Of a stretch of 24,000 nucleotides of DNA, positions 4,227 to 23,909 are shown in pieces. The notes under the pieces were generated by a model. It had not been told where the DNA came from, did not search any database, and saw nothing but the letters and a program-made list of their open reading frames with translations. Source of the DNA: Erysipelotrichaceae bacterium OPF54 (GTDB lineage: Bacteria; Bacillota_I; Bacilli_A; Erysipelotrichales; Erysipelotrichaceae); the NCBI GenBank assembly GCA_022834735.1, contig BQKD01000001.1:139659-163658 (forward strand). The letters run 5' to 3'. The position numbers were made by a program, and so were the translations under genes. Positions within the stretch are counted from its first letter, which is position 1. The number at the start of each line of letters is the position of its first letter.

Positions 4227-4250
4227 ACGATCAACAGGAGGATTCACATT

Positions 4251-4577: not shown

Positions 4578-4598
4578 TGAAATAACGAGGTTTTGGAA

Positions 4599-6002: not shown

Positions 6003-6025
6003 TGAGAAACAAGGAGGACAGGACA

Positions 6026-6541: not shown

Positions 6542-6564
6542 AGAGAGCCCGGCTCTCTTTTTTT
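6542..6564 (+). terminator. Rho-independent terminator or attenuator after the GrdB-like gene
   Basis: AGAGAGC (6542-6548) pairs with GCTCTCT (6552-6558) across a 3-nt loop, followed by TTTTTT (6559-6564). Confidence 0.6.
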
Positions 6565-6592
6565 AAGGAAAAGGAACAGAGGTAACAGGAAC

Positions 6593-7552: not shown

Positions 7553-7553
7553 G

Positions 7554-9364: not shown

Positions 9365-9384
9365 GAACGGAAAGAAGAAACGTG

Positions 9385-9415
9385 TTCACTGCCAGAATGC
9401 GTTTTTTTGTATAAT
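9385..9415 (+). promoter_or_regulatory. Candidate sigma-A type promoter for the Crp/Fnr gene
   Basis: TTCACT (9385-9390) is followed after 19 nt by TATAAT (9410-9415). The GGAGGGGAG RBS and the ATG at 9449 lie downstream. Confidence 0.3.
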
Positions 9416-9448
9416 AATACAAGCAAAACGGAGGGGAGAAACATACGT

Positions 9449-10108
9449 ATGAACTATTTAAGCTATATTCCGGTCTTTGATCATCTGGCCCGATCCGAAC
9501 AGGAACGGCTGAGCCAGGCCTCTTTTATTCGAAAATTCAGAAAAAACGAGATCCTGCATAACGGTTCGCAGGACTGTACCGGACTTGTTCTTGTATTGTC
9601 AGGCCAGCTTCGGGTCTTTACGATATCCGAGGAAGGCCGGGAAATCACGATGTATCGTCTTTTCGAACGCGATCTTTGTCTTTTTTCGGCTTCCTGTATC
9701 ATACACAGCATTCAGTTTGATATGACCGTTTCGGCCGAAAAGGATGCCGAAGTTCTTATGATCCCTTCAGAAGCCTATAAAAGCGTCATGGAAGTTTCCG
9801 CGCCGCTGGCCAATTACACAAACGAAGTGATGGCAAGCCGCTTTTCGGACGTCATGTGGCTGATCGATCAGATCCTGTGGAAAAGTTTTGATAAAAGACT
9901 GGCTGGCTTTCTTTTGGAGGAGATGGATATCGAAGAAACGGATACGCTCAGGATCACGCATGAAGCGATCGGCAATCATCTGGGAAATCCGCGGGAAGTC
10001 GTGACCCGCATGCTGAAATACTTTGTGAATGAAAATCTGATCTCGCTCTCGCGCGGAACCATTGAGATCAAAGACAGAGGGGGCCTTCAAAAGATCGCGG
10101 GAAAGTAA
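9449..10108 (+). CDS. Crp/Fnr-family transcriptional regulator
   Basis: A cyclic-nucleotide-binding-like beta-roll (GLVLVLSGQLRVFTISEEGREITMYRL) is followed by a C-terminal HTH (ITHEAIGNHLGNPREVVTRMLK). No N-terminal Cys cluster is present. The ATG at 9449 has an RBS, whereas the TTG at 9407 lies inside the promoter. Confidence 0.85.
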   Translation: MNYLSYIPVFDHLARSEQERLSQASFIRKFRKNEILHNGSQDCTGLVLVLSGQLRVFTISEEGREITMYRLFERDLCLFSASCIIHSIQFDMTVSAEKDAEVLMIPSEAYKSVMEVSAPLANYTNEVMASRFSDVMWLIDQILWKSFDKRLAGFLLEEMDIEETDTLRITHEAIGNHLGNPREVVTRMLKYFVNENLISLSRGTIEIKDRGGLQKIAGK

Positions 10109-10145
10109 AAGCGCCGGATCCTGAAAACAGGACACAGCGCTTTTT
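10107..10145. terminator. Bidirectional terminator candidate between the convergent Crp/Fnr and CoADR genes
   Basis: An outer GCGC/GCGC stem (10111-10114 with 10137-10140) encloses an inner TCCTG/CAGGA stem (10119-10123 with 10128-10132). AAAA and TTTTT flank the structure. Confidence 0.5.
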
Positions 10146-10194
10146 ACTGTAGAGAGGTTAGTTAGAGTTTGTTTGAGTTTATTCGAGTTCACTT

Positions 10195-11886
10195 TTACTG
10201 ATCCATCCCGCATGGGGAAGATCTTTTGCTGAGTTCCTTTTCGCTGCGGACCGCTTCATAGAACCGGTACCCTCCGGCGAAGTTGTAAGCATCCAATCCA
10301 TGACCGCTCAGGATCCGGCACGCAATATAGCTTCGTAATCCGCTCTGGCACATCACATACACCGGCTTGTCCGTATCGAGCTCATCGAGACGTCCGCGCA
10401 GCTCGTCGACCGGAATATGGATAAAGCCGTTTATATGGCCTGCATTGAATTCAGCAGGCGTGCGTGTATCAAGGAGCGTGACCTTTCCGCTTTTCAGAAG
10501 GGGCCCGAGATCCTCGTAGTACCATTGTTTCACGAGTCCGTTTTTTATATTTTCGATCATGAAGCCAGCCATGTTGACCGGATCCTTCGCCGAAGAATAG
10601 GGCGGAGCGTAGGCAAGATCAAGTTCGGAAAGATCATATGCCTTCATTCCGGCACGGATCGCTGCCGCCAGCACATCGATCCGTTTATCGACTCCGCTGT
10701 ATCCTGCGATCTGCGCGCCAAGCAGATGATAGGTATCCTTTTCGAACAGCACTTTCAAGGTCATGAGTTCGCCGCCTGGATAATATCCGGCATGATTCAT
10801 AGGCGACAGGATCACTTTGCCGTACTCTATACCAAGCGCATTGGCGGTCTTTTCATTGATGCCCGTGGCCGCCGCTGTCATATCGAAAAGCTTGATCACA
10901 GACGAGCCCTGGCCACCTTTGTAATGGCTGTCCAGACCGCAAATCGTATCGGCAGCGATCCGGCCCTGCTTGTTGGCCGGTCCGGCAAGAGAAATGAGAG
11001 TGTCCTGCCCGGTCACAAAATTTCTGATCTGCACCGCATCGCCGACAGCATAAATATCAGGAACGGAAGTTTCCATTTGATCATTGACCACGATCGCGTC
11101 TTTGATTCCGAGTTCCAGACCAGCTTCTTTGGCAAGCGTCGTTTCAGGCGCTACGCCAATCGCCATGATCACCATGTCCGTATGGAGGGCGGGTGTGTTT
11201 TTAAGCTTCACCTCCATATGGTCTTCGTGATCGGCAAAGCCCTGTACCATCGTATCGAGCATCAGATGGATGCTGTTTCTGCGGACCTGCGCGTGAATCA
11301 AGGAGGCCATGTCCTTGTCGAACGGGGCCATGAGCTGATCAGACGCTTCCACAAGCGTCACATCAAGACCGAGATCACGCAGATTTTCTGCCATCTCGAT
11401 CCCGATGAATCCTCCGCCAACGATCACAGCAGAAGCTGGTCGTCTGGAATCTATGTAGTTTTTGATCTTCAATGTGTCCTCGACTGTTCGGATCGTAAAC
11501 ACTTTGCCGCTGTCCATGCCTTCAAACGGAGGGGTGATCGGTCTGGCGCCTGGCGAAAGCAGCAGCTTGTCATAACTTTCCTTAAAAAACTGTCCGGTTT
11601 CCACATTTTTAACGGCCACTGTTTTTGTTTCGGGATGGATGGCTGTTACTTCATGATGCACGTGCACATCAATGTTGAAACGGTCCTGGAAGCTTTGGGG
11701 TGTCTGCAAGGTCAGCTCCTTTTCGTCTTCGATCGTGCTGCCAATATAATACGGCAGTCCGCAGTTTGCGTAGGAAATGAATCCGGACCGCTCAAAGACA
11801 ACGATTTCTGCCTGTTCGTCAAGTCGGCGTATTCTTGCGGCTGCTGTCGCGCCGCCGGCCACGCCCCCTACAATGATCACTTTCAT
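10195..11886 (-). CDS. CoA-disulfide / CoA-persulfide reductase-like flavoprotein with a C-terminal rhodanese domain (CoADR-RHD)
   Basis: MKVIIVGGVAGGATAAARIRR is an FAD-binding GxGxxG motif. ISYANCGLPYYIG carries the redox Cys. A second dinucleotide fold is visible (AVIVGGGFIGIEMAE). The C-terminal rhodanese active-site loop is VYVMCQSGLRS. Confidence 0.9.
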   Translation of the reverse strand: MKVIIVGGVAGGATAAARIRRLDEQAEIVVFERSGFISYANCGLPYYIGSTIEDEKELTLQTPQSFQDRFNIDVHVHHEVTAIHPETKTVAVKNVETGQFFKESYDKLLLSPGARPITPPFEGMDSGKVFTIRTVEDTLKIKNYIDSRRPASAVIVGGGFIGIEMAENLRDLGLDVTLVEASDQLMAPFDKDMASLIHAQVRRNSIHLMLDTMVQGFADHEDHMEVKLKNTPALHTDMVIMAIGVAPETTLAKEAGLELGIKDAIVVNDQMETSVPDIYAVGDAVQIRNFVTGQDTLISLAGPANKQGRIAADTICGLDSHYKGGQGSSVIKLFDMTAAATGINEKTANALGIEYGKVILSPMNHAGYYPGGELMTLKVLFEKDTYHLLGAQIAGYSGVDKRIDVLAAAIRAGMKAYDLSELDLAYAPPYSSAKDPVNMAGFMIENIKNGLVKQWYYEDLGPLLKSGKVTLLDTRTPAEFNAGHINGFIHIPVDELRGRLDELDTDKPVYVMCQSGLRSYIACRILSGHGLDAYNFAGGYRFYEAVRSEKELSKRSSPCGMDQ

Positions 11887-12210
11887 CTATCTCATCGCCT
11901 TTCCTTTGTAGCGGCTGATCCCGCCAATGTTTTCTGCTTTCACGAAGCCGGCTTGCGTTAAATAGGAAACGGCCTGCCGGCTTCTTGCTCCGCTCTGGCA
12001 ATATACGTAAAGCGGGGTGTTTTTGTCTTTGATCTTTTTGTCGATCGTAGAGATTTTATCAAGAGGAATATTGATGCTGCCTTCGATATGTCCGCTCCGG
12101 TATTCCGGCGGTGTCCGCACATCCAGAAGAACGGCTTGTGGATCGGCTTTGTATTTGCTGACACCGGAATTGATGTCTGTACCTGCGCCTAAAAAATTAA
12201 ACAGTCCCAT
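11887..12210 (-). CDS. Single-domain rhodanese (sulfurtransferase)
   Basis: The 107-aa protein contains LLDVRTPPEYRSGHIEGSINIP and the active-site loop YVYCQSGARS. Its stop codon directly abuts the CoADR start. Confidence 0.85.
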   Translation of the reverse strand: MGLFNFLGAGTDINSGVSKYKADPQAVLLDVRTPPEYRSGHIEGSINIPLDKISTIDKKIKDKNTPLYVYCQSGARSRQAVSYLTQAGFVKAENIGGISRYKGKAMR

Positions 12211-12217
12211 TTTTTCC

Positions 12218-12523
12218 TCACAGCAGCTGTTCGATCTGGCTTTTCGGCCGATATCCCGTAACCCGGTTTTCCATTTTTCCGTTTCTGATCACGGCAAGAG
12301 TCGGGATCCCTGCCACCTGGAACCGTGCGGCCAGTTCCGGCTGTTCGTCCACGTTGATCTTGCCCACTTTGATGTCGCTTCTCTCTTTTGCGATTTCTGC
12401 AATAACGGGTCCAAGCATGCGGCATGGACCGCACCAGTCGGCATAGAAGTCGAGAAGCACAGGCTGGGGGCACCGGATCACTTCATCTATAATATTTTCT
12501 TTTGTGATTTGAATTTCAGACAT
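12218..12523 (-). CDS. trxA: Thioredoxin
   Basis: The 101-aa protein has the WCGPC active site, VGKINVDE and GIPTL. A GAAAGGAG RBS is present. Confidence 0.9.
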   Translation of the reverse strand: MSEIQITKENIIDEVIRCPQPVLLDFYADWCGPCRMLGPVIAEIAKERSDIKVGKINVDEQPELAARFQVAGIPTLAVIRNGKMENRVTGYRPKSQIEQLL

Positions 12524-12555
12524 TTGTTTGTTCTCCTTTCAGTTATCATGTCTTC

Positions 12556-12561
12556 ATTATA
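12556..12561 (-). promoter_or_regulatory. Candidate -10 box (TATAAT on the minus strand) for the trxA-rhodanese-CoADR operon
   Basis: The plus-strand ATTATA at 12556-12561 reads TATAAT on the minus strand. No good -35 box is present. The palindrome centre at 12590 would sit near -41 relative to the inferred start. Confidence 0.4.
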
Positions 12562-12571
12562 ATTGTCGATC

Positions 12572-12674
12572 CGCTCTTGTTCTGTGACATTGTCACGTAA
12601 TTCGTTTGTTTATTGTGATGTATCGCTCTTGTTCTTTGACATTGTCGCGTAATTCGTTTGTTTATTGTGATGTA
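12572..12674. repeat. Tandem direct duplication, two 51-nt copies with a 52-bp period
   Basis: Copy 1 (12572-12622) and copy 2 (12624-12674) read CGCTCTTGTTCT(G/T)TGACATTGTC(A/G)CGTAATTCGTTTGTTTATTGTGATGTA. They differ at only two positions, 12584/12636 and 12595/12647. Confidence 0.9.
12584..12596. promoter_or_regulatory. Perfect palindrome GTGACA-T-TGTCAC, a candidate operator; a degenerate second copy lies at 12636-12648
   Basis: This is a direct reading of the sequence. The copy-2 version is TTGACA-T-TGTCGC. Confidence 0.45.
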
Positions 12675-12678
12675 TAAT
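12673..12678 (+). promoter_or_regulatory. Candidate -10 box (TATAAT) for the VTC-DUF4956-CotH operon
   Basis: TATAAT lies at the 3' edge of repeat copy 2. No -35 match is seen. The copy-2 palindrome centre (12642) would sit near -43. Confidence 0.4.
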
Positions 12679-12780
12679 GCGTTTCTGGCATCGCAGGAGC
12701 ATCCGATAAGTAAACTGAGAAGATGCCTGTTAGACTGATTTTAAGAAAAGAGAAAAGATCATAAGCAAAGGAGGGGTGTT

Positions 12781-13482
12781 ATGAACACAGTGATGAGACA
12801 GGAAAAAAAATATCTGATCGACCGCGTGAAGATGGTAGAGCTCAAATCGTATTTTTCACATTTTCTTACGCTCGACCCCCACACAAAAAACGGAACGTAC
12901 CGCGTACGCAGCCTGTATTTCGATTCGATCGACGACCGGGACTATCATGAAAAGGAGGAAGGGATCGAGCTGCGGCGCAAGATCCGCCTGCGCATTTATG
13001 ATCCTGACAGCCCGTATGCGATGCTCGAAATGAAGAAGAAGGAAGGCAGCAGCCAGCAGAAGCGTTCGATGGCCATGTCGCGTCAGGATGCCGAAGAGCT
13101 GATCGGCGGACGGTATGATGTGCTGCTCCAGTACGATACGCCTTTTGCCAAAGAGTGCTATGTCGTCATGAACATGCATCTTTACCGTCCCCGCTCGATC
13201 GTGGAGTACGAGCGGATTGCGTATTGCGGGCCGGCCAATAATATCCGCATCACTTTCGATCATGATATCCGTTCGACCGAAACCGACTTCGACCTGTTTT
13301 CGAAAAATCTGAATCTGTATCCGGTTTTCGGACAGGACCGGGTCGTTCTCGAGGTCAAATACAACGGGTATTTGTTCAGTCCGATCAAGATGGCGCTGCA
13401 GAGCTGCGATCACAGCGAAGTGTCGGTCGGAAAGTACAGCCTGAGCCGCTCTGCCGGCCTGCACTATATTTATCAACTATAG
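12781..13482 (+). CDS. VTC-domain protein (polyphosphate-polymerase-like triphosphate tunnel fold)
   Basis: The 233-aa protein starts MRQEKKYLI, an E-x-K type tunnel motif. It also has YRVRSLYFDS, ELRRKIRLRIY, LEMKKK, VVLEVKYNG and KYS. It is soluble, with no TM segment. An AAAGGAGGGG RBS is present. Confidence 0.85.
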   Translation: MNTVMRQEKKYLIDRVKMVELKSYFSHFLTLDPHTKNGTYRVRSLYFDSIDDRDYHEKEEGIELRRKIRLRIYDPDSPYAMLEMKKKEGSSQQKRSMAMSRQDAEELIGGRYDVLLQYDTPFAKECYVVMNMHLYRPRSIVEYERIAYCGPANNIRITFDHDIRSTETDFDLFSKNLNLYPVFGQDRVVLEVKYNGYLFSPIKMALQSCDHSEVSVGKYSLSRSAGLHYIYQL

Positions 13483-13539
13483 GCAAGAAGACTCCCACCT
13501 CTATAGGTGAAAGATGAATTGCTAAGCTCAGTTTTTCTA

Positions 13540-13568
13540 TGGATAAAGATATAAAAATGCAGTATAAT
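13540..13568 (+). promoter_or_regulatory. Candidate promoter for tnpB inside the left end
   Basis: TGGATA (13540-13545) is followed after 17 nt by TATAAT (13563-13568). A GAGGAGG RBS lies at 13584-13590. Confidence 0.35.
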
Positions 13569-13597
13569 GAAATCAGGGAAAGTGAGGAGGAAACGAT

Positions 13598-14716
13598 ATG
13601 CCGAACAAAGCCTGCAAATTCAGACTCTATCCAACGCCAGCACAGAAGATCCTCCTTGCAAAGACATTCGGCTGTGTCCGCCTTGTCTACAACCATTGGC
13701 TCGATCGAAAGATCAGCCAATACAAAGAAGATCAGACAACCTTGAGTTACACTTTCTGTGCCAAAGAGCTGGCTGTACTGAAGAAAACAGAAGAGTCCGC
13801 CTTCCTGAAGGAAGTCGACAGCATTTCTCTGCAGCAGTCGCTCCGCCATCTGGATCAGGCCTTCCAGAACTTCTTCAAACGGCCCGGAACAGGATTTCCA
13901 CGATTCAAATCCAAAAGAAACAGAAAGAACAGCTATTCGACCGTCTGCGTCAATCAGAACATTCTCCTGTCCGACGGCTGTTTGAAACTGCCAAAGATCG
14001 GACAGGTCAAGGTGAAACAGCATCGGGAGATTCCTGAATCGTATGTTCTCAAGTCGGTGACTGTAAGCCAGAGCCCGAGCGGAAAGTATCATGCAAGCAT
14101 TTCGTTCGAGTACGAAAACCAAGTATCGGAAAGAAAGCCGCACACTTTCCTTGGACTCGACTTCTCGATGAACAGACTGTACAAAGACAGCGAAGGAAAC
14201 GAAGCAGAGTATCCTAAGTATCACAGGCAAGCGGAAAAGAAATTGAAACGGGAACAGCGCAAGCTGTCGCACATGCAGAAAGGCTCCAGAAACTGGGAGA
14301 AACAGCGGATCAAGGTCGCAAAGCTGCATGAAAAGGTTGCCAATCAAAGAAAGGATTTTCTGCATAAGCGATCAAGAGAGATTGTCAATGCGTATGACTG
14401 CGTCTGCATAGAAGACCTGGATATGAAAGCGATGGCAAGATCGCTGCATTTTGGCAAATCGGTTCATGACAACGGATGGGGCATGTTCACTGCTTTCCTG
14501 AAGTACAAACTGGAAGAAGAGGGAAAACAGCTGATCCGGATCGACAAATGGTTTCCTTCGAGCCAGACCTGCTCAGTATGCGGGTATAAGAATCCGGAAA
14601 TAAAAGATCTCGGCATGCGGGAATGGGACTGCCCTCGATGCAAAAGCCATCACGATCGGGATCTCAATGCGGCAATCAATATAAGAAAGGAAGGCATGCG
14701 GATCGTAATGGCATAG
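13598..14716 (+). CDS. tnpB: TnpB (IS200/IS605 OrfB) RNA-guided endonuclease-type protein
   Basis: MPNKACKFRLYPTPAQKILLAKTFGCVRLVYNHWL is a typical OrfB N-terminus. The RuvC-like acidic residues lie in LGLDFSM, CIEDLDMK and HDRDLNAAINI. A zinc ribbon is present (CSVCGYKN...CPRCKSHH). Confidence 0.92.
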   Translation: MPNKACKFRLYPTPAQKILLAKTFGCVRLVYNHWLDRKISQYKEDQTTLSYTFCAKELAVLKKTEESAFLKEVDSISLQQSLRHLDQAFQNFFKRPGTGFPRFKSKRNRKNSYSTVCVNQNILLSDGCLKLPKIGQVKVKQHREIPESYVLKSVTVSQSPSGKYHASISFEYENQVSERKPHTFLGLDFSMNRLYKDSEGNEAEYPKYHRQAEKKLKREQRKLSHMQKGSRNWEKQRIKVAKLHEKVANQRKDFLHKRSREIVNAYDCVCIEDLDMKAMARSLHFGKSVHDNGWGMFTAFLKYKLEEEGKQLIRIDKWFPSSQTCSVCGYKNPEIKDLGMREWDCPRCKSHHDRDLNAAINIRKEGMRIVMA

Positions 14717-14856
14717 CCTGTAAATAAAAAAGAACCGTGGGACACACGGGGATAGCTCGCTTATGCTTGATGAGATATCGTCATCGAACGAGAACCGACT
14801 GTTCGCTTTTTAAGCGAAAGGAAGCCCCCACCTCTATAGGTGGGGGAGGATGTCAC
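14660..14856 (+). ncRNA. Probable omega-RNA (reRNA) scaffold of TnpB; 5' end not determinable
   Basis: Position follows the known TnpB arrangement, overlapping the tnpB 3' end and the right end. Four consecutive hairpins are seen at 14735-14749, 14769-14785, 14802-14818 and 14825-14846. The guide would be the flanking sequence just 3' of the element end. Confidence 0.35.
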
Positions 14857-14874
14857 TACTAAAGGAGGTTTATA

Positions 14875-15552
14875 ATGAGAGACATTTTGGAAGGCATGCT
14901 TGCTGAATCCGGAACTTTGACCACCGAAGAGATCTTAATGCATATTTTCGCGGCTCTGGTATTAGGCATGTTTATTTATATATCGTATTATATCAGCCAC
15001 GCGGGAACGGCATATTCCCGCAAATTCAATATTTCGCTCGTCTGTCTGACAGTCCTGACCGCCACGGTCATGACCGTGATCGGCAACAATCTTTCGCTTT
15101 CGCTCGGTATGGTCGGCGCCTTGTCGATCGTCCGGTTCCGGACAGCGGTCAAAGATACGAGAGACACGATCTACATATTCTGGACGATCGTGGTCGGTAT
15201 CTGCTGCGGGGTCGCGGACTATCTGGTCGCGTGTGCCGGAAGTGCCGTGATCTTTGTCATCCTTTTGTTCCTCGGCCACGTGAAAAACGAAAACCGGATC
15301 CTGCTCATTGTCAAAGGGAGCAGGATGTACGAGGATCAGATCGAAAAGGAGATCTTCGATTATTTCAGCCGCAAGGCGCTGCTCCGCACCAAGAACACGA
15401 CGCCGACCACAGTGGAATATATTTACGAGCTGTCCAGGAAAATGCTGAATGAAAGCAGCCGGAGCGGCACATCGATCACCAGCGCTCTTTATGAGATCCC
15501 CGATACGCAGTATGTCGATATTGTCGCGCAGAGCGATGAGATCAGCGGATAG
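14875..15552 (+). CDS. DUF4956-family membrane protein
   Basis: An N-terminal TM bundle contains GALSIVRFRTAVKDTRDT, the hallmark I recall for DUF4956, and is followed by a soluble C-terminal domain. An AAAGGAGG RBS is present. Confidence 0.8.
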   Translation: MRDILEGMLAESGTLTTEEILMHIFAALVLGMFIYISYYISHAGTAYSRKFNISLVCLTVLTATVMTVIGNNLSLSLGMVGALSIVRFRTAVKDTRDTIYIFWTIVVGICCGVADYLVACAGSAVIFVILLFLGHVKNENRILLIVKGSRMYEDQIEKEIFDYFSRKALLRTKNTTPTTVEYIYELSRKMLNESSRSGTSITSALYEIPDTQYVDIVAQSDEISG

Positions 15553-15554
15553 AG

Positions 15555-17063
15555 ATGAAATACAAGATCATCAGCGCCGTATCGGTCGTTCTTCTGCTCG
15601 TCCTTCCGCTCGCTCTGCAAGCCCTGCGTTCGGACAGCGCGGTATCCAGGGCACGGGGACGATACATTCAGCATCTTGAAGCGCCAAAGGAACAAAGCGC
15701 TTCGAGCGCAACGGACCCTGTGCATTTTCAGACCCATCTGCCGGTCGTGGAAATCGATACGGACGATATACCGGTCCCGGGCAGCTGGATCCTGAACGCA
15801 CAGGGAGCACGGACCGGAACGGAAACGGTCAACGGACAGGAACAGATCGAAGCCCATATCCGCTGGATCGATCACGATACGTCTGTCAAAACATACAAGG
15901 ATGACGGGCTCGACACCCGCGCTCTGATCCGGATCCGGGGCAATTCCTCGCGCGCGTTTGACAAAAAAAGCTACCAGATCAAGCTGATCGATGAAAAGGG
16001 AAACGAAGAGAAAGCGCAGCTTTTCGGGATGGGCGCGCACGATAACTGGGCGCTGTACGGACCGTATCTGGATAAAACGCTCATCCGCAACTACCTGCTC
16101 ATGAACGTTTCGGCTTCGGTCATGGGATATGCGCCAGAAGTGCGCTTCTGCGAAGTTTTTCTCAACGGCCGGTATCAGGGACTGTATGTGCTCATGGAAA
16201 CGATCCGCAAAGGCGGTTCGCGTATCGATATAGAAACGTACGAGCCGGGGAAAGCGGAATTCGACTATATCCTGCGGATCGACCGCAATGATCCGGACAG
16301 CCGGGTCGTCAACTCGTTTTCAACCTACACGTTCCGGCAGGAAATGCTCGGAAGCAGCGCGGGCGTGCAGGTCATTTATCCGCCAGCCTCAAAGCTGGAC
16401 GAAAAAGGACTGAAATATATCGAAGACAATTTGAGCGCGTTCGAAAAGGCACTGTATTCCTCGGATTACCGGAGCGCTTCCAGGGGCTATCGCCGCTACA
16501 TCGATGTCGATTCGTTTGTCGACTATTATGTGCTCCAGGAATTTCTTGCGATCTCGGACGCCGGCACCCGGTCCACGTATTTATACCGCGATCGGTCCGG
16601 CAAGATAAAGATCGGTCCGGTCTGGGACTACAACAATGCCTGGAACAATTATTTCATGTCGTTTGACGAAGAGGGAAGCGAATTCATGCTGGTTGACCGG
16701 ATCTGGTACGACCGGCTGCTCAGCGACCCGTACTTCAATGAAAAAGTGATCGAACGCTACAGGGAACTTAGAAAAACGTTCCTTAGCGATGAAGCCCTGC
16801 TCAGCGAAATGGATGAGATCGTGGATTATCTGGGTAGTGCGGTCGGACGCAATGAAAGCGTCTGGGGCTATGCGTACGATCCGTCCCTGCTTGATGGCAA
16901 CCAGAAGCTTTTTCCGGATGAGCGCAATCCGGAAAACTATGAAAGCGCGCTCGAACAGATGAAAGAGTATATGCGCCGGCGCGGCGCGTGGATGGACCGG
17001 CATATCGATTCGCTGCGTCAGTATGCCCATTCATCGCGTACGGAGAAATACGAAACGAGGTAA
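15555..17063 (+). CDS. CotH-family (atypical kinase fold) protein with an N-terminal signal or anchor sequence
   Basis: The N-terminus is a signal or anchor sequence (MKYKIISAVSVVLLLVLPLALQAL). IRIRGNSSRAFDKKSYQIKL, YLDKTLIRNYL, YQGLYVLMETI and GPVWDYNNAWNN are typical CotH segments. The start lies 2 nt after the DUF4956 stop. Confidence 0.85.
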   Translation: MKYKIISAVSVVLLLVLPLALQALRSDSAVSRARGRYIQHLEAPKEQSASSATDPVHFQTHLPVVEIDTDDIPVPGSWILNAQGARTGTETVNGQEQIEAHIRWIDHDTSVKTYKDDGLDTRALIRIRGNSSRAFDKKSYQIKLIDEKGNEEKAQLFGMGAHDNWALYGPYLDKTLIRNYLLMNVSASVMGYAPEVRFCEVFLNGRYQGLYVLMETIRKGGSRIDIETYEPGKAEFDYILRIDRNDPDSRVVNSFSTYTFRQEMLGSSAGVQVIYPPASKLDEKGLKYIEDNLSAFEKALYSSDYRSASRGYRRYIDVDSFVDYYVLQEFLAISDAGTRSTYLYRDRSGKIKIGPVWDYNNAWNNYFMSFDEEGSEFMLVDRIWYDRLLSDPYFNEKVIERYRELRKTFLSDEALLSEMDEIVDYLGSAVGRNESVWGYAYDPSLLDGNQKLFPDERNPENYESALEQMKEYMRRRGAWMDRHIDSLRQYAHSSRTEKYETR

Positions 17064-17066
17064 TTT

Positions 17067-19157
17067 ATGAAACGATATCTCATCATTATGACATGTATCG
17101 TGTTCGCGATCGCAGCCGTCGTCTTTGCGTACGATCAGGCTTATTTTCCGAAAAGGAGAGCCACGCGGGTGACTTTCCCTTTTCATGTCGAGAACACGGC
17201 CATCATCGAGGAAAAGACCAATGAACCGTTTCTTGTCAAGGGCGTGGATGTCGACAGCTTCGTTCCGGGCTATTACGATACGGATCATGCGGTGAGCAAG
17301 CAGAAATACATGGAATGGTTCGAACAGATCGCCGATATGAACGCCAATACAGTGCGTGCGGTCAGGATCTACGATCCCGATTTCTATAATGCGTTCTATG
17401 AATTCAACACGCAGCAGATCGGAAAGAAAGAGAGTCCTTTGTATCTGATCCAGGTCGTCGGGGTGACGGACTATGCCCAGAACAATGCCCGGGATGCCTG
17501 GTCCGACGAATTTTACGGATCGCTGGTGCGCAACGCGAAACGGTGCGTGGATGTCGTGCACGGCCGGCAGTTTCTGCCGTACGCCCGAACATCCGGATAC
17601 GGACTGTATACGCGGGATATCTCGCCATGGCTTCTTGCCTATGAGATCGGCAGCCGCTGGGAAGCGGACACGATTGCCTATACGGACCACAAAGACGACA
17701 GGACCGGCGCGTATGAAGGAGAGTATATCGAGGTGGACGGAAATGCGACATCGTTCGAGCGCCTGCTTGGCCAGGTCATGGACACGCTCTGCCAGTATGA
17801 AACGGACAAATACGCCCAGCAGCATCTGATCGCGGGCACGACCCAGCTCAATACCGATCCGTTCGATTTCGAACCGCTTTATGATCAGCAGATCGGCAAG
17901 AGCGCGTCGATCGACTTTTCCCGCTTCAAGGCCGGACCTCGTCTGGTAAGCGGACTGATCATTGCCTACAGCTATCATGACTATGGACACGATTTTTCGA
18001 AAGATCTGACCCCCGACGAACAGGAACGCCTGAAAGGCGTGCTTGACCAGGACAATGCCGGGACCGGGGCAGATCCTTACCTGCGCCTGTTTGAACACTA
18101 CAGCACCCATCCGGTCATCCTGGTCAACGGCGGGTATTCGAGCAGCCGGGGACAGACCGGGCTGGATGGGCCGTACACGGAACAGGAGCAGGGCGAGGCG
18201 CTCGTGCGCTTGTATAGAAAAGCGCTGGCTTCAGGCCTTGACGGAATGGTGCTGACGGGCTGGCAGGACAACTGGTCGCGCAGCGACTGGAACACGAGCC
18301 CGTATGTCGAAGAGGGACAGCAGCCGTTCTGGCACGATCTTCAGTCCGAAGGACAAGGGTTCGGGCTGCTGGAGTTCAAGCCGCTCGGAATCAACGGAGC
18401 GATCGAAATCGATGGCGAAACGCAGGAATGGACGAAAAAGGAACAGATCCTGAGCTGCCCGGTCGGGAAGCTGTCGGTCCAGTTCGATGCAGAAGGGGTA
18501 TATATGAAAATAGACTGGGCCAAAGACGTGCAGTTTCCGGTCGTGATCCCGATCGATGTGACGCCGAACAGCGGGGCGCGCCAGATCGAGGGCGAGCCGT
18601 ACACATTTGACAGGGACGCGGATTTTGTGCTGGTGCTCGACAATAAAAAAGAAGCCATCCTGCGGGTGCAGACGTATTACGAGAGCGTGCGGGCAGCCTG
18701 GAACGCGCAGATCCGCGGTTCGGATGCGTATTCGATCCAGGTCCCCGAACCACATGAAGCACGGTTCGTGCCGGTTGAGTCGGTCGCCGAAGGGGCGATC
18801 GTGGATACGGCCGGACACCTGACCTATTTTATGCCGACGGTCGCCTCGGGCGTACTGCGCTGCGCAAAAGGGGCGGATCTGTATTCGATGGCGGATGTGA
18901 CAGAACTGCGGCTGCCGTGGGGCCTGCTGAACTTTTCGGCGCCGAACCAGGCGGCTGTCCACGATGATTACTACCTGCATTACGGTATCGAAAGCCTTCC
19001 TGTCGAAAATATGTATGTCGGGCTTGGCAACGCGGACGATCCGGATATCGTGATGGAAAAAATAAAGCTGCCGCGCTGGGTCCGCAATTTCGAGTACGAG
19101 GAACGGCTGAAGGATTCGTATGCGATCGTTCAGGACGCCTGGAAGGAAGAACGATAG
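17067..19157 (+). CDS. Membrane-anchored extracytoplasmic protein of unknown function; the N-terminal part looks like a clan GH-A (beta/alpha)8 glycosidase
   Basis: The 696-aa protein has a single N-terminal TM (MKRYLIIMTCIVFAIAAVVFAY). The segment FLVKGVDVDSFVPGYY....YMEWFEQIADMNANTVRAVRIYDPDFYNAFYEF resembles the first strands of TIM-barrel glycosidases or transglycosylases. No family could be assigned by eye. Codon usage and translational coupling support it being coding. Confidence 0.7.
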   Translation: MKRYLIIMTCIVFAIAAVVFAYDQAYFPKRRATRVTFPFHVENTAIIEEKTNEPFLVKGVDVDSFVPGYYDTDHAVSKQKYMEWFEQIADMNANTVRAVRIYDPDFYNAFYEFNTQQIGKKESPLYLIQVVGVTDYAQNNARDAWSDEFYGSLVRNAKRCVDVVHGRQFLPYARTSGYGLYTRDISPWLLAYEIGSRWEADTIAYTDHKDDRTGAYEGEYIEVDGNATSFERLLGQVMDTLCQYETDKYAQQHLIAGTTQLNTDPFDFEPLYDQQIGKSASIDFSRFKAGPRLVSGLIIAYSYHDYGHDFSKDLTPDEQERLKGVLDQDNAGTGADPYLRLFEHYSTHPVILVNGGYSSSRGQTGLDGPYTEQEQGEALVRLYRKALASGLDGMVLTGWQDNWSRSDWNTSPYVEEGQQPFWHDLQSEGQGFGLLEFKPLGINGAIEIDGETQEWTKKEQILSCPVGKLSVQFDAEGVYMKIDWAKDVQFPVVIPIDVTPNSGARQIEGEPYTFDRDADFVLVLDNKKEAILRVQTYYESVRAAWNAQIRGSDAYSIQVPEPHEARFVPVESVAEGAIVDTAGHLTYFMPTVASGVLRCAKGADLYSMADVTELRLPWGLLNFSAPNQAAVHDDYYLHYGIESLPVENMYVGLGNADDPDIVMEKIKLPRWVRNFEYEERLKDSYAIVQDAWKEER

Positions 19158-19158
19158 G

Positions 19159-20154
19159 ATGGGAACGGTCATATTTGTGATTCTGGTGCTGTACATGGCA
19201 TTCAGCGTGATCCTTGCGGTATTCAATTTGTATTATCTGCGGCAGATGGAGCGGCAGAGCCGACGGCAGATGGATACGGACAAATTCAGGCAGCGCCTTC
19301 TGGATGCGCTGGAACCGGCGGGAGAAAAGGCGGAGCGGCGGCGCATCAGATGGTACGTGCGCGCGGGCAGCCTGGGCCGTTTCAAAGAGGAGATGCGTTC
19401 TTTCCGAAAAGAAAATCCTGCTCTTGCGGATGCGTATTTTAAAAAGTACGCGGTCGATTATATGCGGCTGCTGCCGGCGATCCGGGAGGCGGAGCTTACC
19501 GAACGGACGATCTATGCTCGCTTTGTGGCGGAAAACGGGATCAACCGCGCTTATAAGAGCGAAGCGTTTGCGCGCGGCATGATCGATCTGATGGACCGCT
19601 CTTCCATGTTCCTGATCCAGGGGGTGCTTTGTGCTCTGGCTTCGATGGGGATGCCGGATGCGGTTGACGAAACGTTCAAAGTAATCACGGAACGGGGCTA
19701 TTACTGCTACAGTAAAAATATCGCTGCGGCCCTGATGAAGTTTTCGGGCTCTTTTGAAGAGCTGCTTGCGGTGCTTATCCGCTACCGGCACACCTACTCG
19801 GTCGAGATCCAGTGTGCCATCCTGCAGGTCCTGCGTCGTCAGGGGAGCGTCTATGCCGACGAAATGCTGGCTCTGCTCAAAGACGAAAGCGAAGACACGG
19901 AAGTGCGGATCGAGGCGCTGCGCTATCTGCTCAGATACCCGATCCGTCCGGCTGCCGACTATATCGCGTCCATGATTTCCGGGCGGAAGGAAACGAACTG
20001 GGTGATCGTGGCGCTCGGGCTGCGGCTGCTCGCGGATTTCCCCGATCCTGAAAACAGGGCGCTGCTGGAAGGGCTGGCGGACGATCCGATCTGGTACGTT
20101 CGTCAGAATGCTGCCGCTTCGCTTGAAAAAATGAAGAAAGGGGCCCGAAAATGA
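19159..20154 (+). CDS. Single-pass membrane protein with a cytoplasmic HEAT/PBS-lyase-like repeat domain
   Basis: The ATG at 19159 has a GGAAGGAAG RBS and lies 1 nt after the upstream stop. The TM segment MGTVIFVILVLYMAFSVILAVFNLYY is followed by a positively charged stretch. HEAT-like repeats include EDTEVRIEALRYLL and DDPIWYVRQNAAASLEKM. Confidence 0.7.
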   Translation: MGTVIFVILVLYMAFSVILAVFNLYYLRQMERQSRRQMDTDKFRQRLLDALEPAGEKAERRRIRWYVRAGSLGRFKEEMRSFRKENPALADAYFKKYAVDYMRLLPAIREAELTERTIYARFVAENGINRAYKSEAFARGMIDLMDRSSMFLIQGVLCALASMGMPDAVDETFKVITERGYYCYSKNIAAALMKFSGSFEELLAVLIRYRHTYSVEIQCAILQVLRRQGSVYADEMLALLKDESEDTEVRIEALRYLLRYPIRPAADYIASMISGRKETNWVIVALGLRLLADFPDPENRALLEGLADDPIWYVRQNAAASLEKMKKGARK

Positions 20155-21560
20155 ACATTCAGATGATCCTGTATATCGCGGAACTGTTTTTTGTTGTCTA
20201 TCTGATCATTTATTCTACGTTTCTGTTTGTCTCGATCCTTTTAGGGACGGTCGAGCTTTACAATATGCACCAGATGAAGCAGTACCGGATCGACCGGCTC
20301 GACGAGATCGATATTCCGGTATCGATCGTGGTGCCGGCCCATAATGAAAGCGTGACGATCGTTCAGACCATCCGCTCCCTGCTTGCGCTTGATTATCCGG
20401 TTTACGAGATCATCGTGGTGGATGACGGCTCGAGCGATGATACGGCATCCAAGGTGATCGAAACGTTCGGCCTGCACGAGATCGAGGCAAGCCTGCGCGA
20501 CGATCTGCGTTCCCGGCCGATCCGGCAGAGCTATACCGGTCATACGGACGGGGTGCATATCCTGCTGCTGGTCAAGGAAAACGGCGGGAAGGCGGACAGC
20601 CTGAACGCGGGGATCAACTGTGCGCATTTTCCGTATTTTCTGTGCATGGATGCGGATTCCCTGCTGCAGAAGGATGCGCTGATGGAAATTGTCAAGCCGG
20701 TCATGGAGCATGAAAATGTGGTGGCGTGCGGCGGTCTGATCCGGATCGTGAACGGCGCCGTGTTCCAGGATGGCCGGGTGGTGAAATACAGGATCCCGTA
20801 CCGGATCCTGGTTGGTACGCAGATGCTTGAATACGATCGTTCGTTTCTTGGTTCCCGGCTGTTCCTGAACCGGTTCAACGGCAATCTGATCGTTTCGGGA
20901 GCGTTCGGCCTGTTTCAGAAAAAGGCGGTGCTGCAGGTGGGCGGCTATTCGACCGATTCGCTGGGCGAGGATATGGATCTGGTCATGAAGCTGCATACGT
21001 ATTTTCGCATGAACCGCAGACCGTATACGATCGAATATGTGCCGAAGGCGGTATGCTGGACGCAGGCGCCTTCAAGCATAAAAGACATTTTTGTGCAGCG
21101 CCGGCGCTGGCATATCGGGCTCATGCAGTGCCTGAACAAATACTGGCGGATGTTTTTGTCGTTTGATTTTGGCGCGCTGGGCTGGCTTTCCTATCCGTAT
21201 TATTTGTTTTACGAGTATTTGTCGCCGTTTATCGAGCTGGCCGGGGTCGTGGTCACGCTGCTGGCCTTATGGTTCCGGCTGATCAACTTTTCCTATATGG
21301 TCACGTTCTTTCTTGTTTATTTTGTGTTCGGGGTGTTCATGAGCGTGAGCGCGTTCCTGGCCCGGGTGTATTCGCAAAATGTCCTGGTGACACGTCGGGA
21401 CATCGGGCGTGTCTGTCTCATGGCTGTGGTGGAAGCGTTTTTCACCCGGTTCGTGGTGCTGGCGGCGCGGATCAGCGCGCTTTTCAGGCTGCGCAGGAAA
21501 AAGATGGAGTGGGGCTCGATCACGCGGACCGAAAATCCGGGACCGGAGAAAAAACAATGA
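20151..21560 (+). CDS. Processive family-2 glycosyltransferase (PgaC/IcaA/cellulose-synthase-like polysaccharide synthase)
   Basis: The motifs are VVPAHNES...YPVYEIIVVDDGSSDDT, NGGKADSLNAGI, MDADS (DxD), GEDMDL and QRRRW (Q-x-x-R-W). TM segments lie at both the N- and C-termini. The start overlaps the upstream stop (ATGA). Confidence 0.9.
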   Translation: MNIQMILYIAELFFVVYLIIYSTFLFVSILLGTVELYNMHQMKQYRIDRLDEIDIPVSIVVPAHNESVTIVQTIRSLLALDYPVYEIIVVDDGSSDDTASKVIETFGLHEIEASLRDDLRSRPIRQSYTGHTDGVHILLLVKENGGKADSLNAGINCAHFPYFLCMDADSLLQKDALMEIVKPVMEHENVVACGGLIRIVNGAVFQDGRVVKYRIPYRILVGTQMLEYDRSFLGSRLFLNRFNGNLIVSGAFGLFQKKAVLQVGGYSTDSLGEDMDLVMKLHTYFRMNRRPYTIEYVPKAVCWTQAPSSIKDIFVQRRRWHIGLMQCLNKYWRMFLSFDFGALGWLSYPYYLFYEYLSPFIELAGVVVTLLALWFRLINFSYMVTFFLVYFVFGVFMSVSAFLARVYSQNVLVTRRDIGRVCLMAVVEAFFTRFVVLAARISALFRLRRKKMEWGSITRTENPGPEKKQ

Positions 21561-22087
21561 GGAAACGATGGCTGGCCGGAGTGGCGGCTCTCTTTCTGGC
21601 ATGCATACTGAACGGGTGCAGGACGCAGGCACATACGGCCCTTTTTTCCTGGGACCCACAGCAGGTCGGGCAAACGGATCAGAAAGAAATGGATGAGATC
21701 CTTTCTGTGTACGGGATCGATGCTCTCTATCAGCTGATGGATCGAAAAAATACGGCTGGACTGGAGCGGTTCATGGCGCATCTGGCCAAACAGGGTGTGG
21801 CGGTGTATGCGCTGGCTGGCGAGACGGAATGGGCCCTGCCGTCCGGCGCGGACGCTATGGAAGGGGAGCTGGAATGGCTGTTCTCGCTTTCCGGTTCGCT
21901 GAAGAACGGTTTTTCAGGGATCGTGCTGGATGTGGAGCCATATCGGAACGAACGCTGGGAAAAGGATCCGAGGCAGGGGATGAAGGAATATGTGGCGAAT
22001 ATGAAGCGCGCATACGAGTCGTGCCGGCAGGTACGCATGGCCTGGCCGAACGCAATACCTATGCCAATACGGACCGGGAACACGTAG
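21557..22087 (+). CDS. Lipoprotein with a glycoside-hydrolase-like motif (GIVLDVEPY); the 3' end is possibly frameshifted
   Basis: MRKRWLAGVAALFLACILNGC contains a lipobox (LNGC). The start overlaps the GT2 stop (ATGA). A different frame (to 22185) continues with genome-typical codons after the stop at 22087. Confidence 0.65.
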   Translation: MRKRWLAGVAALFLACILNGCRTQAHTALFSWDPQQVGQTDQKEMDEILSVYGIDALYQLMDRKNTAGLERFMAHLAKQGVAVYALAGETEWALPSGADAMEGELEWLFSLSGSLKNGFSGIVLDVEPYRNERWEKDPRQGMKEYVANMKRAYESCRQVRMAWPNAIPMPIRTGNT

Positions 22088-22210
22088 AGAGTTCGAAAAG
22101 GCGGCTGCAGGAATCGTATCCGGATATCCGGTTTGCCTATCATTCGCTGGAGGCCTTGAAAAAACAGGAACGTTCCATACAATGAAAGCAAGGAACAAGA
22201 GAAGGGAAAC

Positions 22211-22879
22211 ATGGAGAACAGACTACACAAAATTGCCTGCCGCATCCAGAAAGAAGGGGTCGTGCGGCGCGAATACGGTCACGCGTATGTGGCTGATGAT
22301 ATGGAAAAGGGGCTGGATCTGCGCCCGCGTCTGGAAGCGAAAGAGGCGATCGGACGAGAGATTGCAAAGCGTCTGGAGGATTTTCACACGGTCCTGCTCG
22401 ATTGTTCTTCAACGGTTCATAAGGCGGCTGCTCCGCTCAACCGGATGTCTTCGCGGGATATTTTCACCAACTCGCTTGTTCTGGCTGAGCGGCTGGATGC
22501 GCAGCGGCATTGTGTGTTCGTGCTTCCAGGGCGCAAGCGTTCGAAAAACGAAAGCCTGATCGGGCCGTGGACCGAGGAATATATCGCGAGGATCCATGTG
22601 GATGTCTGTGTGCTCGGCTCTTCGGGTGTCCTGCATGCGCAGGGACCAACGTGCCACTCTTACACCGAAATTTCGACGAAGAGGAAAATGATGGAAGCGG
22701 CTGATTTTGTGATCGTGGCGCTGGATGCGGGCAAGTTTCCGGAAAGCGGCCTGCACACCTATGCGTCCTGGGACGAGGTGGATGCGGTTATTACGGATCG
22801 CATGCTGGACAGGAAGACATATGCGTTCCTGATGGAAAAGATGGAAGTATGGGTGGCGCAGGATGAAGTGTCCGGATAG
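22211..22879 (+). CDS. DeoR-family C-terminal sensor domain protein lacking most of the N-terminal HTH (possible 5'-truncated remnant)
   Basis: The segments LLDCSSTV, VFVLPG, IHVDVCVLGSSGV, TEISTKRKMMEAADFVIVALDAGKF and AVITD fit the DeoR-C/sugar-phosphate-binding fold. An in-frame stop at 22157-22159 leaves no room for the ~55-aa HTH. The residual KEGVVRREYGHAYV resembles only the wing. Confidence 0.6.
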   Translation: MENRLHKIACRIQKEGVVRREYGHAYVADDMEKGLDLRPRLEAKEAIGREIAKRLEDFHTVLLDCSSTVHKAAAPLNRMSSRDIFTNSLVLAERLDAQRHCVFVLPGRKRSKNESLIGPWTEEYIARIHVDVCVLGSSGVLHAQGPTCHSYTEISTKRKMMEAADFVIVALDAGKFPESGLHTYASWDEVDAVITDRMLDRKTYAFLMEKMEVWVAQDEVSG

Positions 22880-23361: not shown

Positions 23362-23550
23362 ATGAGCGAATCAAAACAGAATTCGAATACCTATTCTTCT
23401 TTTGCTGAAGTCCGCCTTCCTGATCCGGGTCCCAGGAAACAAACCGGATCGGATCGGCCAGCTATCGTTATTCAGTCTTCCAAAGGCAAGATCTATATCC
23501 ATAATCATACGGAACCGGTGCTGATTCGAACGGTCCTCGATTCATTATGA
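23362..23550 (+). CDS. IS66-family accessory protein orf1 (TnpA-like)
   Basis: This 62-aa protein sits immediately upstream of and overlaps IS66 tnpB (ATGA). Its C-terminal pattern IYIHNHTEPVLIRTVLDSL resembles IS66 orf1 tails. Confidence 0.7.
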   Translation: MSESKQNSNTYSSFAEVRLPDPGPRKQTGSDRPAIVIQSSKGKIYIHNHTEPVLIRTVLDSL

Positions 23551-23909
23551 GATCTCTTGATTTTAACCGCATCGATCATGTGTACATCCGTCCCGGCTAC
23601 ACGGATCTGCGCAAAGGCATTGACGGCCTGTGCCTGCTGGTTCAATCTTCCATGAAGCTGGACCCGCGTCAGAATATCCTCTTCCTGTTCTGCGGCAGAA
23701 AGACTTCCACCATCAAAGGACTGCTTTGGGAAGAGGATGGGTTCATGCTCATCACCAAGCGTCTAGAGAACGGAAAATTTCAATGGCCCAGAACGGAGGA
23801 AGAAGTCATTGCGCTGAGCGAACAGGAGCTCAGATGGCTGCTTGACGGACTGAGCATTGTACAGAAAAATGCGATTCGTCCAGCACGAAAACGTGCATAT
23901 ATTGTGTGA
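23547..23909 (+). CDS. tnpB: IS66-family accessory protein TnpB (orf2)
   Basis: YIRPGYTDLRKGIDGLCLLVQ, DPRQNILFLFCGRKTSTIKGLLWEEDGFMLITKRLENGKFQWP is the hallmark IS66 Orf2 sequence. This family is unrelated to IS605 TnpB. Confidence 0.9.
   Translation: MRSLDFNRIDHVYIRPGYTDLRKGIDGLCLLVQSSMKLDPRQNILFLFCGRKTSTIKGLLWEEDGFMLITKRLENGKFQWPRTEEEVIALSEQELRWLLDGLSIVQKNAIRPARKRAYIV

Follow-up and report, generated by a model that had tools for sequence, protein, structure and literature searches.

A widespread gene cassette that joins a processive GT2 synthase to a VTC-DUF4956-CotH trio: a candidate synthase-dependent exopolysaccharide system

Introduction

Genes for CotH, a polyphosphate (polyP) polymerase, a DUF4956 protein and a DUF4832 glycosidase adjoin the pel operons of Gram-positive bacteria (Whitfield 2020, PMC7112168; Streptococcus intermedius SIR_1591-1594, PMC12345266), and deletion of the pel-adjacent DUF4956 and CotH genes of S. 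intermedius lowers the Pel level and aggregation (PMC12345266). The synteny of the trio formed by the polymerase (VTC), DUF4956 and CotH genes was not found outside pel loci in that 2025 study (PMC12345266). In Clostridium perfringens, the locus NELoc-2 (CP4_0460-CP4_0468) comprises genes for a VTC protein, a 'tubulin/FtsZ' membrane protein, a resolvase, a second VTC-membrane protein pair, CotH, a hypothetical protein, a HEAT protein and a 'chitin synthase' of glycosyltransferase family 2 (GT2) (Lepp et al. 2010, PMC2879425). NELoc-2 was published as a strain-associated locus only, with no function, exopolysaccharide (EPS) reading or cyclic di-GMP (c-di-GMP) link (PMC2879425), and later papers treat it as a marker locus only. 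Here we analyse a window of 24,000 nucleotides from Erysipelotrichaceae bacterium OPF54 (GenBank assembly GCA_022834735.1, contig BQKD01000001.1, positions 139,659 to 163,658 of the forward strand), in which the trio lies in one array with genes for a 696-residue protein, which we call X, a HEAT-repeat protein, a processive GT2 and a small lipoprotein. We refer to this array as the cassette; positions are those of the window unless a locus is named.

Results and Discussion

Architecture and conservation of the cassette

The cassette is a real, uncharacterised variant of a synthase-dependent EPS system that has been listed once before without interpretation. Its probable role is the synthesis and export, by a synthase-dependent route, of a polysaccharide that is extracellular or lies at the cell surface, with the trio serving as an accessory phospho-module; this supports the EPS-type reading in an earlier note on this DNA, which was built on the processive GT2.

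Relatives of X, full length and free of annotation in the protein search, occur in at least 301 species (one genome per species, scanned with a 14-sequence alignment, as a 33-sequence alignment was too diverse for the scan), so the open reading frames (ORFs) discussed here are real genes and not chance. The carriers, Roseburia intestinalis among them, are mostly gut Clostridia, with others in Erysipelotrichales, in Coriobacteriia (Gordonibacter faecis), in Streptococcus merionis and on a 67-kb plasmid of Planococcus maritimus. When the window proteins were mapped onto loci from 82 different species, the order VTC-DUF4956-CotH-X was kept in 65 of the 68 loci with enough upstream DNA, and the order X-HEAT-GT2 in 70 of the 74 with enough downstream DNA. 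The linkage of the synthase genes to VTC, DUF4956 and CotH, suggested in the earlier note, is therefore not incidental. In 65/68 loci the trio is contiguous, on the same strand and placed between a riboswitch position and the synthase genes, and it stands beside a non-Pel synthase in at least 65 species loci, contrary to the pel-only report of 2025.

All-against-all clustering of the flanking ORFs yielded few recurrent families: the lipoprotein, a GGDEF-EAL protein, a DivIVA-like protein and a carbohydrate esterase family 4 (CE4) deacetylase. Among the flanking ORFs of the 82 loci, genes of pel, bcs, ica or sugar-nucleotide synthesis did not recur. The lipoprotein gene is present in 20 loci, in 12 of them directly 5' of VTC and overlapping it, and a gene for a DivIVA-like coiled-coil protein of about 180 residues lies between GT2 and GGDEF-EAL in locus L026 (8661-9308) and at least nine others. 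CE4 polysaccharide-deacetylase lipoproteins are encoded inside six cassettes at varied positions (L029:6324-7763, L082:5981-7732, L033:443-1744, L062:5196-6614, L076 and L039), one of them with SLH domains. Distant X homologues, in Neobacillus and on a metagenome contig, belong to HEAT-GT2-X loci without the trio, beside a gene for a GGDEF response regulator or an HD-domain protein (PF13487/PF01966), which argues that HEAT-GT2-X is the core and VTC-DUF4956-CotH an added module. The P. maritimus plasmid (NZ_CP059541.1) carries the whole cassette including the lipoprotein gene (4099-12453 of locus L089) beside a Qat anti-phage system, and this location indicates that the cassette is horizontally mobile.

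In the window, one tight array on the plus strand spans 12781-22879. The earlier note had given CotH/X, X/HEAT, HEAT/GT2 and GT2/lipoprotein junctions of 17063/17067, 19157/19159, 20154/20151 and 21560/21557, all of which the ORF coordinates bear out (spacings of +3 and +1 nt, then two 4-nt overlaps at ATGA); its description of the module as translationally fused does not hold, the genes being separate ORFs that are tightly coupled instead. No convincing plus-strand terminator was found between 14875 and 22185. CotH, X and the HEAT protein each have a single N-terminal hydrophobic segment, DUF4956 and GT2 have several, and VTC has none.

The synthase and the HEAT protein

The GT2 gene (20151-21560, plus strand, 469 residues; Pfam Glycos_transf_2 6.5e-25, Glyco_tranf_2_3 and Chitin_synth_2) encodes the full set of motifs of a processive enzyme, as had been claimed for it: DDGS (20421-20432), DAD (20649-20657), GED (20964-20972) and QRRRW (21096-21110). 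Transmembrane (TM) segments are clustered at both the N and the C terminus, the latter cluster spanning residues 355-444. The best NCBIfam match is PgaC_IcaA (TIGR03937), at 148.7 bits (E 2.3e-43) against a cut-off of 422.3; cellulose synthase (CelA) scores 52 bits against a cut-off of 699 and NodC 34 bits, and among Protein Data Bank (PDB) sequences the matches to BcsA are weak (E 2.5e-05). The HEAT-repeat gene (19159-20154, plus strand, 331 residues; Pfam HEAT_2 1.5e-09) is called with the same 331-residue product in the close relative L086. Its single N-terminal hydrophobic segment (residues 1-28) supports the single-pass topology first proposed, and by the positive-inside rule the repeats are predicted to be cytoplasmic.

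Which sugar would such a synthase polymerise? The polymer is probably an N-acetylhexosamine chain. This assignment, favoured though unproven, follows from the preference of the GT2 for PgaC_IcaA, the presence of CE4 in six cassettes and the fold of the lipoprotein, which is nearest to glycoside hydrolase (GH) families GH18, GH84 and GH20.

A glycosidase-type barrel predicted to lie outside the membrane

X (17067-19157, plus strand) has no Pfam or NCBIfam match, although members of its family show sub-threshold Pfam matches to GH113 and GH72. Its AlphaFold (AF2) model, built from a 33-sequence alignment, has a mean predicted local distance difference test score (pLDDT) of 90.4 and a predicted template-modelling score of 0.89, and shows a single N-terminal TM helix, a (beta/alpha)8 barrel at about 55-430 and beta-rich C-terminal domains at about 435-690. 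Foldseek searches of the PDB place the model in clan GH-A, with GH157 first (3e-13), followed by GH2 glucuronidases, GH5 mannanases and PslG. The earlier description of a membrane-anchored protein with a glycosidase-type triosephosphate isomerase (TIM) barrel is thus substantiated by structure prediction. Single-sequence PDB searches with X, CotH and VTC gave nothing useful and profiles were required; for X, the only sequence-profile match was that of the family profile to LaGH157 (hmmsearch E 8e-4).

LaGH157, an endo-beta-1,3-glucanase (PDB 9FZ9/9G4N), is the best structural match of X and shares with it the TDP and E-F-G regions. The two differ at the catalytic residues. In the profile alignment, the NEP motif with the acid/base Glu of LaGH157 stands opposite N-W-P in most X proteins, and T-E-F-G with the nucleophile (the residue changed in the E224A structure) stands opposite S-E-F-G. 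Of 88 X sequences, 53 have W/E as the acid/base-nucleophile pair (L053, for example) and only 3 have E/E (L001 among them). In the window, both members of the canonical GH-A Glu pair (acid/base after beta4, nucleophile after beta7) are replaced, by Q260 (codon 17844) and N354 (codon 18126) respectively, which makes hydrolysis by the canonical mechanism very unlikely. An active hydrolase role for the X of the window was rejected on these grounds, and the protein is best read as a putative glycan-binding, anchor-type protein.

The lipoprotein family offers a second candidate for glycan processing. No Pfam match was found for the window lipoprotein, and its homologues, 270-290 residues long, have no Pfam GH18 match; a word-indexed protein search returned 2-4 relatives, an exhaustive profile search 1314 cluster representatives. 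The AlphaFold model of an intact orthologue (P0062, 279 residues, 91% identical to the window protein) is a compact TIM barrel with a pLDDT of 95.2, and its Foldseek matches in the PDB are GH18 chitinases, GH191, O-GlcNAcase (GH84) and dispersin (GH20). Two features recall the DxE and MxY(D) motifs of GH18, a lead and not proof: D125-x-E127, which follows beta4 and hardly varies, and an M-N-Y motif. One family member of 912 residues (P0122) is fused to a purple-acid-phosphatase/metallophosphoesterase domain, a single possible link of the lipoprotein barrel to phosphate-ester chemistry. The GH-like character that had been assigned to the IVLDVEPY motif thus stands for the family; the window gene itself is a deletion and frameshift remnant, as described below.

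The VTC-DUF4956-CotH trio

The VTC-domain protein (12781-13482, plus strand, 233 residues, no TM segment; Pfam VTC 7.9e-41) belongs to a well-conserved family (66% mean column identity) whose profile matches the yeast Vtc4 structure 3G3Q. K10, R69 and R71 are invariant in the cassette family and align with residues that we take to be K200, R264 and R266 in Vtc4 numbering. These aligned Lys and Arg residues suggest that the window protein has a Vtc4-type tunnel domain. As in the yeast VTC complex, a multi-pass membrane protein accompanies VTC in the cassette without exception; its TM domain, however, is DUF4956/MgtC-like and not of the Vtc1 type, and there is no SPX domain. The DUF4956 protein (14875-15552, plus strand, 225 residues; Pfam DUF4956 3.1e-12, MgtC 7e-4) is hydrophobic and MgtC-like in its N-terminal part, with about four TM helices, and soluble towards the C terminus.

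CotH (15555-17063, plus strand, 502 residues) is a predicted atypical kinase of the CotH family, and its Pfam match (3.9e-62) covers the whole model. Hydrophobic residues 1-27 form a signal or anchor segment, on which basis the protein is predicted to be extracytoplasmic. Its D335 and D358, with 23 residues from one to the other, do not vary across the family. Bacillus subtilis CotH is a Ser/Thr protein kinase, and its D228Q and D251A substitutions are catalytically inactive (PMC7821199); from the identical 23-residue spacing, and from spacing only, we infer that D335 and D358 are the equivalent residues.

Cyclic di-GMP signatures in the family

A c-di-GMP-I riboswitch (Rfam RF01051) lies directly 5' of VTC in R. 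intestinalis. A covariance model built from ten c-di-GMP-I matches and searched in the 82 loci found the riboswitch in 27, always on the plus strand and upstream of VTC, mostly 40-150 nt off (for example L053:135-221, L045:6899-6985 and L055:6841-6927); Rfam confirmed 24 of the 27, with scores of 57-82 bits where the gathering score is 35. A CE4 gene is interposed between riboswitch and VTC in L033. At the other end, the gene directly after GT2 in 36/64 loci, which often overlaps it by 4 nt, encodes a GGDEF-EAL protein whose EAL match is strong and whose GGDEF match is weak (separate genes, for example, at L021:14664-16550 and L054:14677-16593), and in L033 GGDEF-EAL is fused to GT2 (8344-11658). 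A riboswitch 5' of VTC and a GGDEF-EAL gene 3' of GT2 mark the array from VTC past GT2 as one c-di-GMP-controlled unit, and such bracketing is a classic signature of biofilm or EPS operons.

The window and its close relatives have neither the riboswitch nor the GGDEF-EAL gene and carry the lipoprotein and DeoR genes instead; the window's leader upstream of VTC (12524-12780) gave no Rfam match at E<=1. The earlier statement that GGDEF receptors are absent is thus correct for the window and not for the family, where c-di-GMP-I riboswitches and GGDEF-EAL genes are common. This division coincides with the state of X. An adjacent lipoprotein gene is commoner where its nucleophile Glu is lost (10/24 versus 4/58, Fisher p 4e-4, kinship ignored), and c-di-GMP elements are commoner where that Glu is retained (40/58 versus 4/24, p 2e-5, kinship again ignored). 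The window belongs to the subtype with lost nucleophile, lipoprotein and no c-di-GMP elements. The counts describe sub-clades and are not proof of compensation; they agree with the notion that hydrolase activity lost from X is provided by the lipoprotein in such loci.

Comparison with described systems

NELoc-2 has the window's gene order of VTC, DUF4956-type protein, CotH, protein of about 690 residues, HEAT protein and GT2. Product lengths in NELoc-2 and the window, in residues, are 230-232 and 233 for VTC, 222-226 and 225 for the DUF4956 equivalent, 497 and 502 for CotH, 685 and 696 for the hypothetical protein and X, 377 and 331 for the HEAT protein, and 466 and 469 for GT2. Judged by gene order and product size only, NELoc-2 is the same cassette, with a VTC-DUF4956 pair duplicated around a resolvase and an extra sigma factor gene as its peculiarities. 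C. perfringens was not among the best 80 of the at least 301 genome matches to X.

The contiguous VTC, DUF4956 and secreted CotH genes are shared with Gram-positive pel loci, which likewise adjoin a gene for a TM-anchored, TIM-barrel glycosidase-like protein with a beta-domain. The pel loci have PelDEAFG where the cassette has GT2 and HEAT, and X lacks a Pfam DUF4832 match. A Pel locus was rejected as the identity of the array: PelF (GT4), PelG, PelD, PelE and PelA are absent both from the window ORFs and from the recurrent flank families. The poly-N-acetylglucosamine (PNAG) systems IcaADBC and PgaABCD contain the nearest GT2 relative (PgaC/IcaA), with QRRRW-type motifs, and CE4 occurs in a few related cassettes. 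The GT2 nevertheless falls far under the equivalog cut-off, and a HEAT protein, a GH-A-like anchor and a kinase/polyP module are found in place of IcaD, PgaD, IcaC, PgaA and PgaB; the window proteins have no Polysacc_deac_1 match of the IcaB/PgaB type. Matches to PilZ, BcsB or GH8 (BcsZ), as expected of bcs, are also lacking among them.

Listeria PssA-E and B. subtilis YdaJKLMN resemble the cassette in three respects: an IcaA-like Firmicutes GT2, an adjacent gene for a large extracytoplasmic partner, and control by c-di-GMP (here in the family). PssZ and YdaJ are GH8 enzymes. A degenerate GGDEF protein serves as the receptor in these systems, and X lacks a BcsB or GH8 match; in the window, no Pfam match was found to a BcsB-like PssD/YdaN, a GH8 hydrolase or a degenerate-GGDEF receptor. 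In Listeria, the IcaA-like GT2 is paired with PssD, a BcsB orthologue (PMC4125290). Pfam and NCBIfam scans thus detected none of the usual ica, pga, bcs, pel or pss partners among the window proteins, as the earlier note had stated. Its further claim that the module is unlike known systems needs qualification, since the gene order is already that of NELoc-2 (PMC2879425) and the trio is already an accessory set of pel (PMC7112168, PMC12345266).

Proposed mechanism and alternatives

We propose the following model for the cassette. The membrane GT2 would polymerise a sugar-nucleotide, its sugar probably an N-acetylhexosamine, and extrude the chain, with the single-pass HEAT protein as its putative cytoplasmic co-subunit. 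Outside the membrane, the glycosidase-derived barrel and beta-domains of X may receive, bind or remodel the emerging chain; with both catalytic Glu residues replaced, the X of the window would be limited to binding. The small GH18-like lipoprotein may trim or release the polymer. On the most likely reading of the trio, cytoplasmic VTC and the DUF4956 membrane protein would supply a phosphoryl donor, polyP, across the membrane, and secreted CotH would then phosphorylate the polymer or else a protein of the matrix or cell surface. That the polymer is phosphorylated, as the earlier note had suggested, is a plausible possibility. The trio would represent a separable accessory module that also serves Gram-positive pel operons, and c-di-GMP would control the cassette in most relatives.

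A bolder form of this model can be conceived, in which VTC and DUF4956 constitute a bacterial polyP synthase-translocase analogous to the yeast VTC complex and the exported polyP feeds secreted CotH, which (poly)phosphorylates the poly-N-acetylhexosamine made by GT2 outside the cell and independently of ATP. X proteins that retain only the nucleophile, with Trp for the acid/base Glu, might then act on phospho-activated linkages. We regard this extension as rather unlikely.

Several observations weigh against the proposed model. The gene content of the window does not settle the identity of the sugar, as sugar-nucleotide and deacetylase genes are lacking. To our knowledge, CotH is established only as a protein kinase, so that a glycan as its substrate is speculative; outside the cell a kinase must also be provided with a donor, and we know of no precedent for the use of polyP by CotH. 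The likeness of the lipoprotein to GH18 is modest (Foldseek E of about 1e-6, template-modelling scores of 0.45-0.59, no Pfam GH18 match), and most X proteins, with W/E as the prevalent pair, lack the canonical residues, which puts the enzymology of the family itself in doubt. Conservation of the HEAT protein is weak, with a median identity of 24%, and 4 loci gave no match to it. The damaged copy in the window may be non-working altogether.

The main competing explanation, which we consider possible though not likely, casts the trio as a regulator. By protein phosphorylation or polyP signalling it would control the synthase or the assembly of the matrix, and CotH would target X, the lipoprotein or further surface proteins. 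CotH has been shown experimentally to be a Ser/Thr protein kinase (PMC7821199), and for the CotH of pel loci a regulatory role was put forward by Whitfield et al. (PMC7112168). Service to two unrelated synthases, the GT4 of Pel and the GT2 here, would suit a general regulator no less than a general modifier. The predicted place of the kinase domain is outside, however, away from the cytoplasmic catalytic and c-di-GMP-sensing parts, and regulation is already provided by the c-di-GMP elements. Attachment of the trio to two unrelated synthases argues for action on a shared extracellular step.

Could the array instead be a diverged PNAG system of the ica/pga type, with the kinase and polyP genes as unrelated neighbours? 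The GT2 does score best against PgaC_IcaA, CE4 genes occur in some cassettes, and dispersin-like and chitinase-like folds are among the Foldseek matches of the lipoprotein. We nonetheless find this very improbable, given the distance of 148.7 bits from a cut-off of 422 bits, the absence of IcaD, PgaD, IcaC and PgaA, and of CE4 from the window and most cassettes, and the same-strand, contiguous position of the trio between riboswitch and synthase genes. Similarly improbable is a spore- or septum-associated envelope layer instead of a biofilm EPS. In favour of such a layer, the CotH of Bacillus is a kinase of the spore coat and could act likewise here, Clostridia are numerous among the carriers, at least ten cassettes have the DivIVA-like gene, and the yda EPS of B. 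subtilis ends on spores (PMC13274460). Against such a layer, the CotH of the cassette has a signal anchor and the c-di-GMP riboswitch control is typical of vegetative surface or biofilm functions. The carriers also include S. merionis, Gordonibacter and Planococcus, which belong to genera that are not known to form spores.

What would the proposed synthase-dependent EPS system with its accessory phospho-module imply? If it is correct, at least 301 species, mostly gut Firmicutes including R. intestinalis, carry an unstudied c-di-GMP-controlled surface polymer system. It would also provide a first functional hypothesis for NELoc-2, a chromosomal marker of the chicken-pathogenic C. perfringens strains of necrotic enteritis that has been without a role since 2010. 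The trio itself is a portable module found with two unrelated polysaccharide synthases, Pel and GT2, and the roles of bacterial VTC-domain proteins and secreted CotH kinases become directly testable in culturable carriers, among them R. intestinalis, Harryflintia acetispora DSM 100433, Neglectibacter timonensis and P. maritimus XJ11. Such carriers, or the intact relative L086, are better experimental material than the damaged copy of the window.

Decay of the window's copy and its surroundings

Three contigs (L086-L088) carry an undamaged locus with DNA 93-99% identical to the window, and comparison with them exposes three lesions, a tnpB insertion, a deletion in the lipoprotein gene and a deletion in the DeoR gene, by which the window's cassette is a partly decayed copy. 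The insertion is an IS200/IS605-family element with tnpB only (1373 bp, 13484-14856, plus strand; tnpB at 13598-14716, TnpB of 372 residues; Pfam OrfB_IS605, Cas12f1-like_TNB and HTH_OrfB_IS605). It lies in the last codons of VTC, just 5' of the DUF4956 ribosome-binding site, and separates the two genes. Its ends are hairpins (CCCACCTCTATAGGTG), the right-end one at -11.1 kcal/mol (z -4.5). The element is not present in L086 and L087, and its site in L086 is empty.

The lipoprotein gene (21557-22087, plus strand) encodes a truncated product of 176 residues with an LNGC lipobox and the GIVLDVEPY motif, the N-terminal half of the protein without beta5-beta8. An internal deletion of 211 bp, with its junction at about 22010-22031, is flanked by the imperfect direct repeats GCATACGAG(T)TC(G/C)TGCCGGCAGG. 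An out-of-frame remnant (22025-22185, plus strand), recognised by the tblastn frame change and by DNA alignments with L086 and L087, codes for the C-terminal 45 or so residues of intact homologues (22025-22165 by tblastn). The module had been placed at 17067-22185 in the earlier note. Its start and gene order stand, and its end has to be revised: 22185 is the stop of the other frame and cannot be that of the lipoprotein gene, since 21557-22185 comprises 629 nt, which is not divisible by 3, and the in-frame stop is at 22087. Both the intact orthologue P0062 and a truncated form 99% identical to the window protein (P0061) are in public data. A sequencing artefact was considered as the cause of the frameshift and rejected, as the same 176-residue product comes from another assembly source (ENA) in a 7-member cluster and the deletion lies between direct repeats.

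The gene for the DeoR-family regulator (22211-22879, plus strand) has lost 87 bp (29 codons) in frame at about 22253-22267, between short direct repeats, and with them most of the helix-turn-helix (HTH). Its relatives, 232-251 residues long, have the HTH_DeoR domain, with intact proteins of 251 residues in L086 and 232 in L087 and L088. Loss of the HTH could derepress the target genes of the regulator.

Opposite the intergenic leader of VTC is a divergent thioredoxin gene (12218-12523, minus strand). The genes upstream of the array are unrelated to it and encode a phosphotransferase system (PTS) regulator and EIIC, an asparaginase, a peptidase, CutC, a Crp-type regulator, a CoA-disulfide-reductase-like protein and the thioredoxin. 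Adjoining the PTS EIIC gene, an ORF of 180 residues (5999-6541) matches just the N-terminal half of selenoprotein B of glycine/sarcosine/betaine reductase; translation past its stop, as for selenocysteine read-through, gave no obvious protein continuation. Downstream of the cassette, an IS66 Orf2-like gene (TnpB_IS66, 23547-23909, Pfam 7.9e-36) is a second mobile-element gene in its vicinity.

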